From Vicugna vicugna (lineage: Eukaryota): a DNA stretch of 64,000 bases. The notes beneath the pieces were generated by a model. That model ran no database searches, had not been told where the DNA came from, and was given only the letters and a program-made list of their open reading frames with translations. A program made the translations under genes and the position numbers. The stretch lies in NCBI GenBank assembly GCA_013265495.1, contig MU058009.1:3801780-3865779 (forward strand). Direction: 5' to 3'. This document shows positions 3,985 to 41,942 of this stretch, piece by piece. Positions within the stretch are counted from its first letter, which is position 1. Every line of letters begins with the position of its first letter.

Positions 3985-4238
3985 ATGATGATGGTGATGA
4001 TGATGGTAATGATGGTGGTGATGATGATGATGGTGATGATGGTGATGATGGTGGTGGTGGTGATGATGGTGATGATGGTGGTGGTGGTGGTGATGATGGT
4101 GATGATGATGGTGATGATGATGGTGGTGGTGGTGGTGATGATGGTGATGATGATGGTGGTGGTGGTGATGATGGTGATGATGATGGTGATGATTATGGTG
4201 GTGGTGGTGGTGATTATGGTGGCGGTGGTGATGGTGGT
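3985..4238. repeat. Compound (GAT/GGT)n trinucleotide repeat, ~250 bp
   Basis: Read directly; it produces the poly-His, poly-Asp/Gly, poly-Met/Val and poly-Ile/Thr ORFs in the track. Confidence 0.98.
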
Positions 4239-18879: not shown

Positions 18880-21864
18880 CCGTGCCTGGCCCCGTCCTGA
18901 CAGCCCTGATGCTGAATTGTAATCCAGCATGTCCTGGTCTGCTTTCGCCTCCAGCCCAGACGAAGCAGGAATCACGTGTTTCATCTCCACGTCCCCAGAG
19001 CTCTCACAGAAGCGGGTGTAATTAGATCCGCAATCCCTTATCTGCAATTCCAAATTCCAGAAGGTCTGAGAACCTGAAGTCTTCTCGCAGGGAAAGCTGG
19101 GCGAGGTGTTGGCAGGTTTGCAGCGTCAGGATGTCGTAGCCGAGTGGAGACAACACTCATAAACGTCAGGAGGGGTGAAACGCTAAACGCCGGTGCTCGG
19201 AGGAGGGAGGGGTACCCCTGGGAGGGGGGCAGAGGCCTCGCGGCACGTGGGTGGGGTTTAAATTGTAGGTACGCGTTCTGAAGGCGAGGGGGTGCTGGGG
19301 AGGTGAACGTGGAACAGCGTACGTGGCTTTCTGGGTATTTCTCGCACTGTCTGGAAAGTTTCCTCCCTTCCCACGGAGTTGTCCAGTTCTCCCAGGGCTG
19401 GGACGTTGGCCAGTTTTTTTCCATTCTTGCCACGTAGCCCAGAAAAAGGCTCTCTGTGGACGACCCAGAGCTCTCCTATTTGGCAGGAAATAATTCTGGC
19501 CTTACACGCAGAATGTGGTCAAGAATACAGCCAGCCCCCGAACCAAGCGGGTTTAAGCCGCACGGCCCGCTGCGACGTGGGCTTTCCCCAGTTGCAGATA
19601 CCACAGCGCTGCCCGCCGCGCGGCTGGCTGCGTCCCGGGTGGGGCCCGCAGGCACGGCAGGGCGGCTGTAGGAGTTCGGAGGGTTTCTGACTGTGGGGAG
19701 GGCCCACACTCCTAACCGCTGTGCTGTTCGAGGGTCAACAGCATTTTCTTGAATAAATGGAAACTTTAAAAATGCAAGTTTTTAAATGAATAAGCCTTAT
19801 TTTTTATTTTTGTTAGAGCAGTTCCAGGTCCCCCAAAATGCAGCAGGAAGGACAGACCCCGCCCCCACTGATGCAGGGCCCCAATTACAAACACCCCCCC
19901 GGGTGGAACGTGGCTTATGTTTATGTTCCTACGTTAACACGTGATTTTGACGCCCCTTTGTCGTCATGTAAGAGCAGGGACAGAGGCAGACGAGGCGTCA
20001 CCCCCCTCCCCCCGGCCTCCTGCCCCTACCCGGGGCGCCTCGCTCTGCGAGAAGCCTGCCCGGGACCAGGTTACAATCCTCGAAAGGTGTCAGCACGGAG
20101 AAGGCAGAGGGGAACTCACAGGCAGACATTACAAATGGGAAAAGCCCTGCAGGGCGCCTTCCCTCCCTCGGGGGCCAGGCGCCCCCCGCCGGGCCGCGCT
20201 CTCCCTGCGGGAAACAGAAGCATGCGGGCCTCGCCGGCTCCCGGGGCAGACGGAGCAGCCCTGTGTTCTCTGACTCTTCCCAGGAGTGCAGCCCAAAGAC
20301 GGCAGCACTGAACACCAAGCCCTTAAAACTCTTCGCTCTTGACAGTTTACAAAGCACGTTTAAAGAACCGTCAGAGCCTCGTTGCGCCCCGGTGGCGCGT
20401 GCAGGGTGTGAGGAGGTCTCTCCGTCTCAGGTGAGGGGCGGGCCCTCTCCCCTTAGGGGACGGATGGAGCCGGCGGTGGGATGCCGAGTCCTGGGCCGTG
20501 CTTCCCACAGGGCCGGAGGGAGGGGGCGTCCCTCTCGTGGTCCCCTGGCCACAGCCCTGATAAAACCAGATCAGTTGTTCACAGTGTGACACCCGTAAAA
20601 GCAACAACACGACCATCCGTTGAACCAGAGAAGACGGCTTTGATTTGTGTGCAGGAAGGGAAGTTCCCGAGTCAGATCATTTTAGGAGAAGCTTAAGCAT
20701 GGCTCTTCCGCGAGGACCTTCTCCAAGCCTTTGGTGTACAGATGTGGCCATGGATCTCCAGGAGAGGGAGCGTGCAGCAGATCTACCTTCCCGAGGCCGT
20801 TCCGCCTCGATCCCGTTCTCAGCAGGCCTTCTTGGGTGGAGAACTTCTGGGGGAAAGAACGTAGCGTTAGAACTGGTGACGTGGGGGTCCTCCAGGGAGG
20901 TTCTCGGAGAAGCCTGGGGGAGGAAAAGCAGAAGACTAAACTCTCCAAGAAGAGACTCCGAAGAGCTGAATTATTCAGGCATAGTAGGAAAAGGATGCTG
21001 GCCACTAAAATTGACTTAAACTATTTGGCAAGTGAGGGGATTTGGTGTCTGGTGTGGTGAGGGGCCGACCTTGGACGCTCAGGGCCCTGAGCTGGGCTTT
21101 CCAGTGTCAGAGCGAGGGCTCACTGGGCTGCAAGGAACCTGCCCTGCGAAGGCTGAGAGCCTTGGAGGCCGTGAGCCAGGCAAGGTGGGGACTGCAGACA
21201 GAGGGTCTCCTAGGACATGAATGGACCAGGCTGGACCCAATTGCAGGCAGGGGACCGGAGAAGACCACCCACGCAGGTCTCAGCTGGGCTCACAGTACTG
21301 AGTTAACGAGCGATTTCTCTGGACCCTGAGCACTAAGGGGAAGCTTGGATGCTGTGTGACAAAGCGGGGCAGGGATAGAGGCCTTGGGTGAGTTCACTCC
21401 AGCCTGGAAGGGTGAGGGGGAGGTGGACGAGGAGAGGAGAGAGACGCAGAGCCAGAGGCATCAGAAGGAGCCCCAGAGCCCCAGGAAGAGTCACCCTGTG
21501 GGGAGCTGTGCCCTCCTCCCATGCAGGCACCGCCAGCACTGACCGCCGTCCCCATGCACCGCCCCCCATGAGAGAGGGTGCTCCTCTCGCCCACATCCAG
21601 CTCCCTTGGACTCCACGGTTGCTGGTCCTCCCTCCTTCTCCCGACCTTTCCTCAGTGAAGAGGGGAGTCGGCGTGGCGGGGCCAGGGTGGCGAGGAGGGA
21701 CCGGCTGCCACCACAAAACAAAAGGAGATCAGGAGGGCAGCGTGGGCCCTGGGGAGGGTCCTCCTGCAAAGTCCCGACTTTCGCTCAATACAGAGGTAGG
21801 ATTAAAAAATAGTGCCCACCTATTGTGATGGTTTCAAAGTCAGAAGCTGGCCTTGCTTTCAAAG

Positions 21865-22040
21865 ACCTTGTGTGTAACGTGATGCACGGCTTTCTCTCTG
21901 TCTCTCTCTTTATAGGTAAGTGACATTTCATTCTGCTCATCCCAAGGCAAAGTTGGATGTTTTTAAAGTGGAAAAAAAAATGATCGGAAAAGAGACGGGG
22001 AAGGTGGGCAGAGGTGGCCGTCGGGGCGGCACAGGTAGGT
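21865..22040 (+). other. Candidate recursive splice site (3'ss immediately followed by 5'ss) and RS-exon
   Basis: AG-free zone 21865-21913; pyrimidine tract 21890-21911; AG 21914-21915 directly followed by GTAAGT 21916-21921; downstream donor CAG|GTAGGT at 22034/22035. Confidence 0.6.
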
Positions 22041-24400
22041 GCACGCGAGATCCCTGTCCTTTGCGCAGACAGAGGGGAAGGGGAGCCCCCACCCCCGAGT
22101 CGGAGGTGGGCGCCTCTCCCCAGAACGAGAGGTCCGGGGCGTGGCCGTGCTTTGAGACGGAGGCGCCTTTGCTGCTGGAGAGCGGCCTGCTCTGTAGAGC
22201 AGAGCTGTTGCCAAGGTGTCTGCCTCTGGTGAGGTTTCCGGTTGGGGTTTTGCGTCCTGATGTCTCGTATCAGCTACTTTGTGTGCGTTGGTGGTAGAGG
22301 CAGCCGGGGAGACCGTGCTGGCTTCTGAGGAGCAGAGTTCAAACACCCCAAGTGGGAAAACCAGGAATGGGAAGACGAACATCCCTGTTATGATGAGACT
22401 GCAAATGGCACGGAAGTTTCTGGGAAGAAAGGAGGTTTGTGGGGAAACTGACACCCTCTGGGACATTAAGAGTCATTTATTTAATTTCAAGGTCGGTCTA
22501 GTGACCGCGGACGTATATTTCTGTTCCTGCTGGTCACCGCGGCCGCGACACCACTTCTGTCCTCTGTAGCCCGCGGCAAAGCGGCCTCCCAGGGCTGGTG
22601 GCGGGGCGTCGTTACCGCCGCCTCGCCCCTTCTGAGTCGTTCAGGGGAGGCATTCTGAAGTTCAAGATGAGTTTGGGCTTTGGGCTGTTCTGAAATTCAC
22701 CTGCTCTCCCCTAAGATTAAAGCGGAAGGACCCTTATTTTTCTTGTAACTTGCGAACGATCCGCTGACATAACTGACTGATGGCTCTGCCCGCGCGTGTC
22801 TGCTATTTTCTTGGAGAGAAAGAAGAAAGAATTGTAAGGTATCCTATTTAATAGTCTGTAAATCTAGGCGGGGAGCACACGACTCAGGTCAGCAAAGGTA
22901 TTTGAAATGCACGGTGCTATCGCGGACACAGAATTGATTGGGGGCTGGTTTGGGAGGAAGGGGAGACAGACAGAAACCACTCCATCTGTGGTCCTCAGGG
23001 GGGCAGTTCTCATCCACACACCAGAGACACATCTGCGGACATGAGAAATGTCAGAAAGTGGCAAAAATACCAGAATTTGTTATGTAAGGTGTTTAACTCC
23101 ATTTCTAAAATTTGGATACTCTTGTTGTTTTTTTAATTCTCTTTCCCTCAATTTCAACAAAGAGGACCAAAAAAAAGGCACAAAATGCCCCTTTTTTCCC
23201 TCTGAAACGGGGCAGCCTCCCTGTATGTGGGAAACCACTCTCCTCTTCACGACGTCACAGCCCAGCCGTGGGGGCTTTCGTCGCACGCGCACGGCAGGCG
23301 CGGTGCCTCGGGCGCGCGCTCCCGGCTGCAGGCAGGCCTGGGAATGCTTCGTGGTATCTGCCCTGAACCACGGGGAATTAAGCTGCGGTCTGTCTGACCC
23401 TTGTCCAAGAGGGAGCTCTGTGCCCCGCAGTCTGCTTTGAAAATGGAGGAAAACTGCAGCCAAGAAGCAACCCTAGATCCTACCCACCAGGGAATACGGA
23501 GACGGGCGCCCGGCCACAGGGCTGTTGTAGCTGCTTTGTCACAAAGTGCAGGAGTTCTCTTGCTGCCTTTGGGTCGAGGCTGATGGAGTCACTGACTTTT
23601 TTGGAAAATTCGTCTCGTTTTGAAATTTGTCAACAGAATAAGGGCTGCAACACAGTTCCTCCTTTGCCGTGATTTTCTGCCCTTTATGCAGACAGCAAGG
23701 GAGGGGGGAAGGGCCGGCACTCAGCCCCGGCTTCCCCTCCGGACACCCTCGTCTGCCCCCTGAGCTCAGAGGCAGGGGCGCTGAGAGGCCAGGCTGTTGC
23801 AAGGGATGAAGTCAGTGCCTCGGAATCTCCTGTCAACAAGGAGGTCCCGGAACGTACGTTAGTTCCGCAAGGGCGAGTGCGGCGGGGGGTGTAAGCACAA
23901 CGGGTGTGTTTGAATGGGTTCCACACGCTCTGATCCTCAGAAGTGTGGGAATACAACCCCCCCTGCACCTGCCTTACAAGCAGCACATCTCAGCGTCGCT
24001 GTGCCCCGCGGAACAGGAAAGGACGGTGCGCGCACACAGTCAGCCCCAGGCACACCGGCACCGCGCACACTCACAGCACACACGTGCGTAATTTCAGGTG
24101 CAAACACACTGAGCTGCGATGTCGCCTTCGAAAGGTGACAAGGGGTGAAGGCCCTCGTCAGAACCAGACCCGCCCTCTCGTTTCCCACGACACCAGGCGT
24201 GCTGCGTTTCGCTCCCCCATCACTCCCCCGGCCGCGCCCGCGCACTGTGTTTACTTCACAGCGGGGTCGCCCAAAGCCGGCGTCTTCCTTTGCTTCGAAA
24301 CCCACCGATCCGTCCTCCGGGGGGCACAGCAGATCACGTGGGGTCCAGCTCTGGTTCCCCTCCCTCTTTGACTCTCCACCCCGGGTTCTGTGGCCTCCCT
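22010..24400. promoter_or_regulatory. CpG-dense, repeat-poor segment (CpG-island-like patches ~22500-22630, 23250-23330, 23850-24320)
   Basis: High CG dinucleotide density by eye (ccgcggccgcg, cgcacgcgcacgg, ggcgcgcgc); not computed. Confidence 0.45.
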
Positions 24401-39045: not shown

Positions 39046-39213
39046 GGGGGCCGGGGGCAGCGGGGCTGGGGGCAGCTGGGCTGGCAGGGGCAGCGGGGCT
39101 GGGGGCAGCTGGGCTGGCAGGGGCTGCGNNNNNNNNNNNNNNNNNNNNNNCAGCGGGGCTGGCAGGGGCGGCAGGGCTGGCAGGGGCAGTGGGGCCAGGG
39201 GCAACGGGGCTGG
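39046..39213. repeat. G-rich minisatellite (ggggcagc/ggggct subunits, 33-bp higher-order unit) containing an assembly gap (N 39129-39150)
   Basis: ggggcagcggggctgggggcagctgggctggca occurs twice before 22 Ns, and related units resume after the gap. Confidence 0.9.
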
Positions 39214-39269
39214 AAGGCCCAGGCCCAGCCAGATTGTAACGTCTGTCCTGTTGCCAGTAGACGTGCTTT

Positions 39270-39645: not shown

Positions 39646-41660
39646 GGGAGTCTAGTCGTGGTAATGAGGGACATCTCCGACTCTGAGATGACTTGCACTG
39701 CCAAGCGGTGCTGCTTGGCACCGGATGCTCAGAGTGCAGGCGTGGTCCTGGCCTGGGATTTAGCCTCGAGGAGTGGGAGGAGCACAGTAAGATGGGAAGT
39801 AGCCAGGGGCCCAGGACAGACCCCAGGGGAGAGAGCCGCAGGGCAGGTGGGCCCCACAGCTCCCTGGGAGGGCCCCAAGCAGGTGGGGCCCAGGTTCACC
39901 CAACAGGGAAGATCTGATTCAGGGCCCCCTCCCGGACGCCATGGCGAGGCTGGCCCAGAGGCACAGACAAGAAGGGGTGAATTTCCTTTGATTTCCTTTG
40001 GTGTTTTCAAAGGTGGAAAATAATTTCTGTCCTTTTCTGAGAACCACTTAGCTGCAGACCGAGGGCTGGGCAATGACCCGTCTGCAGGAAATGCTAACTG
40101 GAAACAGTCACCCCCCAGCCCTGACCCGCCAGGGCGAAGCCTGAGCCAAATGCCCTGCTGGGAGGGCAGTGGGGGCCCGGAGCCAGCCCGAAGCCGCGTC
40201 CTCTGAGGCCAGGATGGACGGCGCGAAGGACAGCGGCTGCGTTCGGGGGCAGTAGGGACCCTGCGCTGGGAGGTGGTGGTCCACGTGCAGGGCCCGGGGG
40301 CTCAGTCTCACGTGCCCCGTGAGTGACCTCCCCCACCTGCTGTGAAGTAACTATGAAAGGAACCAACGTTCCTGGAAAAGCATAAAGCGCAGCTGCAGGA
40401 GGCGTGAGGAACGTGGGACACAGCGGTTAACCAGGACGGATCACTCCCGTGCCGGGAGCCCGGCGTCCCCCAGGGTCCCCTCAGCCCAACTGCCTGAATG
40501 TGGCGCTTCTGCCCCTCTCAGCTGGGGTCCCTGGCAGGGGCTCAGTCACTCGGCGACCCTAACGAGGGCTGCACGTGGGTGAGAGTTTGGGGGTTCCTGG
40601 TCCCACCTCCTTCACCAGGCTGGTCACAGGGAGAGGGACCTTCCTTGCATCCAGCTTGGGTCTCGCTGGTCTGACTGCCTGTCTCCTGGGCATGACTGCA
40701 GAACCTGCAACCTCAGCTCCCCGACTCAGCGCTCCCCGCACAGGCAGAGCCCCGGCCAGGCACTGCAGGCCGTGCGGCCCGAGGGTGGTGGGCACGGGCC
40801 CTCCTCCCCAGGGAGCAGAACCACCCGACCTCAGGTCACCAGAGAGAGGGGGGCGAGGGCACTGGGAGTCGGGCATCGGGGGCTGTGAACCGCCCCTCCT
40901 GGCCTCCCCTGTTGCTGTTGGCCCTTGGCTGGTCCCCAGCCCCCGTCTGCACCTCCCGCGGGCCCTGCCACCGCGCACGCGTCCCCTGGTGCCCACTGAG
41001 CTCCAGCAAAGCCATCAAGGGGATGCATTTTTAAAAGAAAACTCATTTACCAAGCAGGCCTCTTGCACAGTTGATGGAACAGCCTCTTCTGGATGGAAAT
41101 CGTGGCGAGGTGGCCTCCCCGGGGCTCTTCTGGCCCTGACATCACACTGTTGCACTAATAAACCCCGCAGGGTGCGCCTCCAGTCTGCGCGTCTGATCCG
41201 GGAGCCGCAGCTCGGGGGGCTGCCGCCGGGGGCCGCGCAGCCGCCTGGGCTCCCCGGGCTGGGGGCTCGGAAGCCTCAGACCCGACGCCTTTTGGAGGAG
41301 GGCTCCGTGCAGGGGGAGGCCCGCCCACCCCGCGCTCACTCCCGTGCCATGCCGCGCGCTGGGTGTCCGAAAAATGGTTTGTGGGTGCAGGAGGGTGGGT
41401 CGCACACACCACTAAATTAGAAGACAACATCTTGATATTTATTTTTAAAGCCCCCGAAAAATCCTTTCGAATCACATCAAACTGTGATTGAATGCATCCT
41501 TCTCTCTGGGGAAGTCTGTGAGGTGAGCTGCTAAACCCGACTGGTCTCTGGCTCCCCCGTCCACCCACTTCCTGTGGGGCACCTGTGAGGCAGGCACCCC
41601 AAGGCACCTCTGCACCTGCCCCCTCCTTGGGGCTCACAGCTGGTGCGGCGACTGGACTGT

Positions 41661-41942
41661 CCACCTGGACGGTCCACCTGGACCATTATCCACCTGGACG
41701 GACCACCTGGACCATTATCCACCTGGACGGTCCACCTGGACCATTATCCACCTGGACGGACCACCTGGACCATTATCCACCTGGACGGTCCACCTGGACC
41801 ATTATCCACCTGGACGGACCACCTGGACCATTATCCACCTGGACGGTCCGCCTGGACCATTAACCACCTGGACCGTCCACCTGGACCATTATCCACCTGG
41901 ACCGTCCACCTGGACCATTATCCACCTGGACTGTCCACCTGG
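41661..41942. repeat. 29-bp minisatellite (ccacctggacggW + ccacctggaccattat), ~9.7 copies
   Basis: Read directly; 13+16-bp subunits share ccacctggac. Confidence 0.97.

Follow-up and report, generated by a model that had tools for sequence, protein, structure and literature searches.

A Probable Camelid Orthologue of the Recursive Splice Site of Mouse Ntm, in a Presumed Giant Intron of the Neurotrimin Gene

The Genomic Setting and the Presumed Host Gene

The window analysed here is the whole stretch of 64,000 nucleotides at positions 3,801,780–3,865,779 of one contig (C1220) in the genome assembly of Vicugna vicugna, and positions are given in coordinates of this window unless they are named as contig positions. 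Two genes precede the window on the same contig. A search of the genome with the APP_N profile located two exons of APLP2 on the + strand at contig positions 2,650,340–2,651,418, and the exon at 2,650,340 is 100% identical to APLP2 of both alpaca and dromedary. Exon 1 of SNX19, the one full-length match given by a search of the genome with the Pfam profile PXA, lies on the − strand at contig positions 3,246,404–3,246,913, and the open reading frame at this locus is 99% identical to dromedary SNX19. The order along the contig is, then, APLP2 (2.65 Mb, +), SNX19 (3.25 Mb, −) and the window, which lies ~0.56 Mb beyond SNX19.

NTM, or neurotrimin, is an IgLON cell-adhesion gene. On horse chromosome 7, the gene order as printed in PMC10378902 runs APLP2, ST14, ZBTB44, ADAMTS8, ADAMTS15, SNX19, NTM and OPCML. 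Human NTM is a + strand gene whose intron 1 measures 540,674 nt, according to S1 Table of PMC6110456, and the IgLON 1a transcripts, as they are described in PMC5288359, have exon 1a spliced to exon 1b''. By comparison with these orders, the window is at the place and on the strand expected of the giant NTM intron after SNX19. On the grounds of synteny, of the strand skews described below and of an exon nowhere being recognised within it, the whole window (1–64000, + strand) is presumed to be part of the giant NTM intron that extends from exon 1a to exon 1b''.

Inspection by eye of the 148 stop-to-stop open reading frames of at least 110 amino acids in the window led to no recognised coding exon. 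Two codon-usage scans of 264 kb, covering the window and its flanks of 100 kb in either direction, returned LINE-1 fragments plus one real-looking exon, a copy of part of CEP97 beyond the window end. Both approaches agree with the initial annotation, which had found no recognisable coding exon in the 64 kb. In a further 90 kb downstream, no exon was recognised by codon score or by a generic pattern of Ig strands, and this pattern gave 3 matches in six frames of 314 kb, 0 of which stood in an Ig-like context by eye. Profile searches of the genome with I-set and Ig_3 placed none of their best 150 matches on the contig of the window, a titin-like cluster being dominant among these matches. For the range from −100 kb to +254 kb of the window as a whole, no coding exon of the host gene, Ig or other, was recognised by scans whose reach does not extend to a short signal-peptide exon. 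An Rfam scan of the window gave 0 matches.

The CEP97 sequence, at window coordinates 75907–76326 (−), is 12 kb past the window end and inside the presumed NTM intron. It copies the last coding exon of that gene alone (amino acids 724–860), has an open frame and shares 98–99% identity with the alpaca CEP97 C-terminus. The remaining CEP97 is found on another contig (C5938), where the matching last-exon stretch is at 90% and contains three stops. CEP97 was considered as the host locus and rejected, as only its last exon is present here, as a stray copy, and the remainder of the gene is on another contig. Recent segmental copying or misplacement in the assembly could explain this exon.

Base composition provides a further indication of the transcribed strand. 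In mammals, long transcribed regions are skewed toward T over A and G over C on their sense strand. Over 264 kb, the + strand has an excess of T over A of 4.7% and of G over C of 0.7%, and in 32 of the 33 bins of 8 kb the sum S_GC + S_TA is above zero. Within the same 264 kb, the recognisable LINE-1 ORF2 fragments are mostly on the minus strand (e.g. at −69098, −65924, 18128, 69129, 103131 and 149993); a single + strand fragment lies at −14293. The skews are suggestive of transcription of the + strand, and the antisense bias of the LINE-1 fragments, in like manner, is suggestive of a + strand gene. The window is 55% G+C and depleted of CpG; giant introns are usually described as AT-rich, in contrast to this region with its 52–55% G+C.

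Several repetitive elements were also observed in the window. An imperfect trinucleotide array of 250 nt at 3985–4238 consists of ATG/GTG units with a higher-order period of 75 nt and 91% matches, and it gives rise to long artefactual open reading frames in several frames. A tandem array at 41660–41942, minisatellite-like in its organisation, comprises 9.8 copies of a 29-nt unit with 95% matches and, on the + strand, can be read as a repetitive open frame. An assembly gap, seen as a run of 22 N, is located at about 39130–39150 within a G-rich block of 15–33-nt repeats at 39047–39217.

The Candidate Recursive Splice Site and the Rarity of Its Motif

The candidate recursive splice (RS) site occupies positions 21865–22040 of the + strand. 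Its acceptor AG, at 21914–21915, would mark the end of the first intron segment; it forms part of the TAG at 21913–21915 and of an AGGT core. It is preceded by an AG-free zone of 49 nt at 21865–21913, the nearest earlier AG being at 21863–21864, and by a polypyrimidine tract of 22 nt at 21890–21911 with a single G at 21900, such that pyrimidines make up 18 of the 20 nucleotides (90%) preceding the AG. The branch-point consensus yUnAy is matched at four of its five positions by each of two motifs further upstream. These candidate branch points, as read from the sequence, are GTAAC at 21874–21878, with its A at 21877 and 38 nt before the acceptor AG, and GTGAT at 21879–21883, with its A at 21882 and 33 nt before it; both adenines (−38 and −33) fall within the 20–50 nt upstream of an acceptor in which a branch point is sought.

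With zero spacing after the TAG, the hexamer GTAAGT follows at 21916–21921, is complementary to U1 and would provide the intronic portion of a recursive 5' splice site. A downstream donor, CAG/GTAGGT (CAGGTAGGT; the slash marks the exon end), lies at 22032–22040 and places the exon end at 22034, which defines a putative RS-exon of 119 nt at 21916–22034. An alternative donor, AAG/GTGGGC at 22001–22009, looks weaker by eye and would end the exon at 22003, for an RS-exon of 88 nt. Three-frame translation of the 119-nt RS-exon finds it closed in 3/3 frames, by TAA at 21917–21919, TGA at 21921–21923 and TAA at 21964–21966; it also contains a run of nine A in the camelid sequence. A premature stop codon is reported for 68% of human RS-exons in PMC6110456. 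The stretch 21800–22100 (301 bases) has a single occurrence in the 2.03-Gb genome and is thus non-repeat DNA. Strong acceptor, GTAAGT, downstream donor and premature stops in the RS-exon, the features by which a recursive site is recognised on sequence, are all present at this position.

Upon re-reading of the sequence, every base described by the initial annotation was confirmed for the branch-like motifs, the 49-nt AG-free zone, the 22-nt tract, the TAG/GTAAGT junction and the donors at 22003 and 22034, and its statements that the RS-exon has stops in all three frames (21917, 21921 and 21964) and that the site is in non-repeat DNA were borne out by the translation and by the single genomic occurrence of 21800–22100, respectively.

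Two short CpG-rich patches were noted in the otherwise CpG-depleted DNA at 22480–22640 and 23250–23330, 0.5–1.4 kb downstream of the RS-exon. In a comparison of sampled sequence words of 20500–23500 with sequencing runs, the share of words was 0.11–0.17 in four RNA-seq runs of one study and 0.08 in one unlabelled run, small shares that do not amount to evidence of expression.

To estimate the frequency of the motif, a 354-kb part of the contig, between −100 kb and +254 kb of the window, was surveyed for AGGT on either strand. This survey yielded 2,820 AGGT sites, 7 of which have the form AGGTAAGT and 5 of which have at least 18 pyrimidines among the 20 upstream bases, and just one of the 2,820, the site at 21916, possesses both features. 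Within the 64-kb window, AGGTAAGT is present in one copy per strand. A similar motif, though rare per window, would be expected by chance hundreds of times genome-wide, and because of these chance occurrences, the motif alone is not proof of a recursive site. It is the match to mouse Ntm, described in the following section, that lifts the site above chance.

Correspondence with the Mouse Ntm Site and Alternative Explanations

The mouse data are those of the supplement of Song et al. 2022 in PLoS One (PMC8797253), specifically its S1, S3 and S4 Figs, in which S3 Fig E presents the 20 bases preceding AGGT at 20 mouse RS sites, and S4 Fig A presents the coordinates of RS-exons, the counts of junction reads and the 9-mers of both donors. 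In these figures, the mouse Ntm RS site is chr9_-_29674403 of mm10, its RS-exon is chr9:29674281–29674404 (about 124 nt) and its upstream exon end is 288 kb from the RS site. It tops the list of 84 candidates, its junction reads numbering 475 upstream and 5 downstream, and it is among the RS sites that were accepted on junction reads together with a saw-tooth pattern in the host intron (PMC8797253); a mark in S1 Fig D, as we read it, apparently designates it 'novel in mice'. MaxEnt scores in the same supplement are 12.55 for its acceptor, 11.0 for the reconstituted donor AAG/GTAAGT and 10.28 for the downstream donor CAGGTAGGT. As drawn in S3 Fig E of PMC8797253, the AGGT core is common to 20/20 mouse RS sites, and 15/20 have AGGTAAGT.

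The comparison between the two species covers 37 printed bases plus the exon length, and hence concerns motifs alone rather than a full alignment of the flanks. The core AGGTAAGT is the same in camelid and mouse at 8/8 bases. Of the 20 upstream bases, 14 are identical and six differ, with 13 identities among the nearest 14 bases, and the fraction of pyrimidines in these 20 nt is 0.90 in both species. The 9-mer of the downstream donor, CAGGTAGGT, is identical at 9/9 bases, and the RS-exon of about 124 nt in mouse is near in length to the 119 nt of the camelid exon, which is ~5 nt shorter. The mouse site lies in a very long intron, and the camelid site would do so too, with at least 122 kb upstream of it in which the scans recognised no exon. 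The exon side of the regenerated donor is AAG in mouse.

How much these identities weigh was judged against the 354-kb survey. The match of 14/20 upstream bases to mouse Ntm is the best among the 2,820 AGGT sites, and two unrelated sites reach 13/20; therefore, likeness of the upstream tract is by itself weak evidence. The 9-mer CAGGTAGGT, on either strand of the 354 kb, has its sole copy at the position that corresponds to the mouse exon end, and the chance of finding it within a 25-nt window after the site is ~25 in 708,000. Judged by these printed motifs, the Ntm RS site reported in mouse is conserved in the camelid in its tract, its fused acceptor and donor, the length of its RS-exon and its second donor.

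The site is, with a probability of about 0.85, the camelid orthologue of the NTM RS site, located in the giant intron that separates the far-upstream exon 1a from exon 1b''. It had been proposed in the initial annotation that a vertebrate-type RS site with a stop-laden RS-exon lies here, within a giant intron of some neuronal gene on the + strand, and the mouse Ntm match, the synteny and the strand skews lend support to that proposal. NTM had been named there among several candidate hosts, and the match to mouse Ntm and the APLP2/SNX19 synteny agree in pointing to it. Whether the site was the orthologue of a known one or a new one had been left as a question, and it very probably is the orthologue of the known mouse Ntm site. 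The element is, very probably, an already known one in a new species and not new in kind. Its use in camelids is deduced from orthology.

A human counterpart was not identified, because among the putative human RS sites in S1 of PMC6110456, none of the first 30 of the 77 NTM rows has a 3' splice-site score above 10. One putative human RS site in this table is placed 292,301 nt from the start of NTM intron 1, with an acceptor score of 7.1 and a PhastCons value of 0.905 (PMC6110456 S1). This position is near the 288 kb of mouse and the site may be the human counterpart, which we do not claim in view of the acceptor score of 7.1.

Three other explanations of the site were weighed. The best surviving one, itself improbable, holds that 21916–22034 (or 21916–22003) is an ordinary or RS-like cassette exon of NTM, or a cryptic exon, that is stably included through the 22034 donor, to which the GTAAGT at its start would be incidental. 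Such exons are well represented in the mouse screen, where 46 of the 84 AGGT candidates with junction reads are unannotated exons, and cryptic exons of the RS-like kind are known as well (PMC8797253). The strength of the downstream donor in mouse, with a MaxEnt of 10.28 against 11.0 for the recursive donor, would favour inclusion, as would the 5 downstream junction reads at mouse Ntm; set against these 5 are 475 upstream reads, and the mouse site was accepted on its saw-tooth. In addition, coding inclusion is impossible since the exon is closed in 3/3 frames. A kindred possibility, which we regard as similarly unlikely, is that the RS-exon region is part of a stable transcript in camelids, either an isoform that includes the RS-exon or an unannotated transcript from the CpG-rich patches, perhaps outside the brain. 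Were this the case, the conserved RS site would also serve to switch NTM 1a transcripts in a tissue-specific manner.

It is very unlikely that motifs resembling an acceptor and a donor have come together here by chance and play no part in splicing, in intergenic DNA or as an unused intronic motif. The base rates of recursive splicing are indeed low, as 20 accepted RS sites contrast with 4.77 million gene-sense AGGT sites in mouse (PMC8797253), and in human, 36,870 conserved AGGT sites with strong acceptors were reduced to 342 with junction reads and to 16 with a saw-tooth (PMC6110456), and the host exons were not located within the stretch scanned from −100 kb to +254 kb. However, chance would have to account for the coincidence with mouse Ntm, including a 9-mer that has no second copy in 354 kb and stands at the matching distance, for a contig position where NTM is expected, and for the site being the sole one of 2,820 with both features. 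Least credible of all is that the site is the orthologue of the RS site of OPCML, the paralogue that adjoins NTM, is its closest relative and has a published first-intron RS site with AGGTAAGT, since the mouse Opcml site has 11/20 upstream bases in common with the camelid site (hand count) vs. 14/20 for Ntm, an RS-exon of 136 nt and the donor AAGGTATGG, neither of which is present at the camelid site, and the neighbour of SNX19 in the gene order of PMC10378902 is NTM, not OPCML. The chance motif and the OPCML paralogue are both rejected on these grounds.

Proposed Mechanism and Comparison with Known Systems

For the site as the orthologue of the Ntm RS site, the mechanism would follow the vertebrate RS model as laid out in Blazquez et al. 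2018 (PMC6224609) and in PMC8797253. In transcripts from the 1a promoter, 21916–22034 would first be recognised as an exon by means of its strong acceptor and the 22034 donor CAG/GTAGGT. Exon 1a would then be joined to 21916, with removal of the first intron segment, and this joining would regenerate a consensus donor composed of the end of exon 1a and GTAAGT. The regenerated donor (11.0 in mouse) would usually prevail over the 22034 donor (10.28 in mouse), leading to a second splice from 21916 to exon 1b'', after which the RS-exon would leave no trace in the mRNA. If the 22034 donor were used instead, the RS-exon would be included and, with its stops in every frame, would render the product non-productive.

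If this reading is correct, a genuine RS site has been picked from raw sequence alone among thousands of AGGT sites. Its conservation between mouse and camelid would extend the Ntm site across distant placental orders, and would support the view that the whole RS-exon unit, and not the AGGT alone, is under selection. As regards annotation, an otherwise featureless, G+C-rich window of 64 kb would be recognised as lying inside the NTM 1a intron.

For long neuronal genes of vertebrates, RS sites accompanied by cryptic RS-exons were reportedly described by Sibley et al. in 2015, perhaps with human NTM among those listed. Intronic ratchet points of Drosophila, as treated in Duff et al. 2015 and in Joseph et al. 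2018/2021 (PMC8605326), are similar in that acceptor and donor are fused with zero spacing and a long intron is removed stepwise. They differ in being far more numerous, 197 vs. 10 by the count quoted in PMC6224609, and they are not homologous to the camelid site. The vertebrate sites of CADM1/2, ANK3, OPCML, HS6ST3, PDE4D, ROBO2, NCAM1 and LSAMP are much closer in kind, and have in common with it the form YnAG/GTAAGT and the premature stops in the RS-exon. As modelled by Blazquez et al. 2018 (PMC6224609), they also depend on exon definition by a downstream donor and on the competition of two donors, an arrangement for which the camelid site has both donors in place. As is presumed for the camelid site in NTM, they are situated in the first intron of a long adhesion gene with expression in brain, and there is no structural difference between these vertebrate sites and the one in the camelid.
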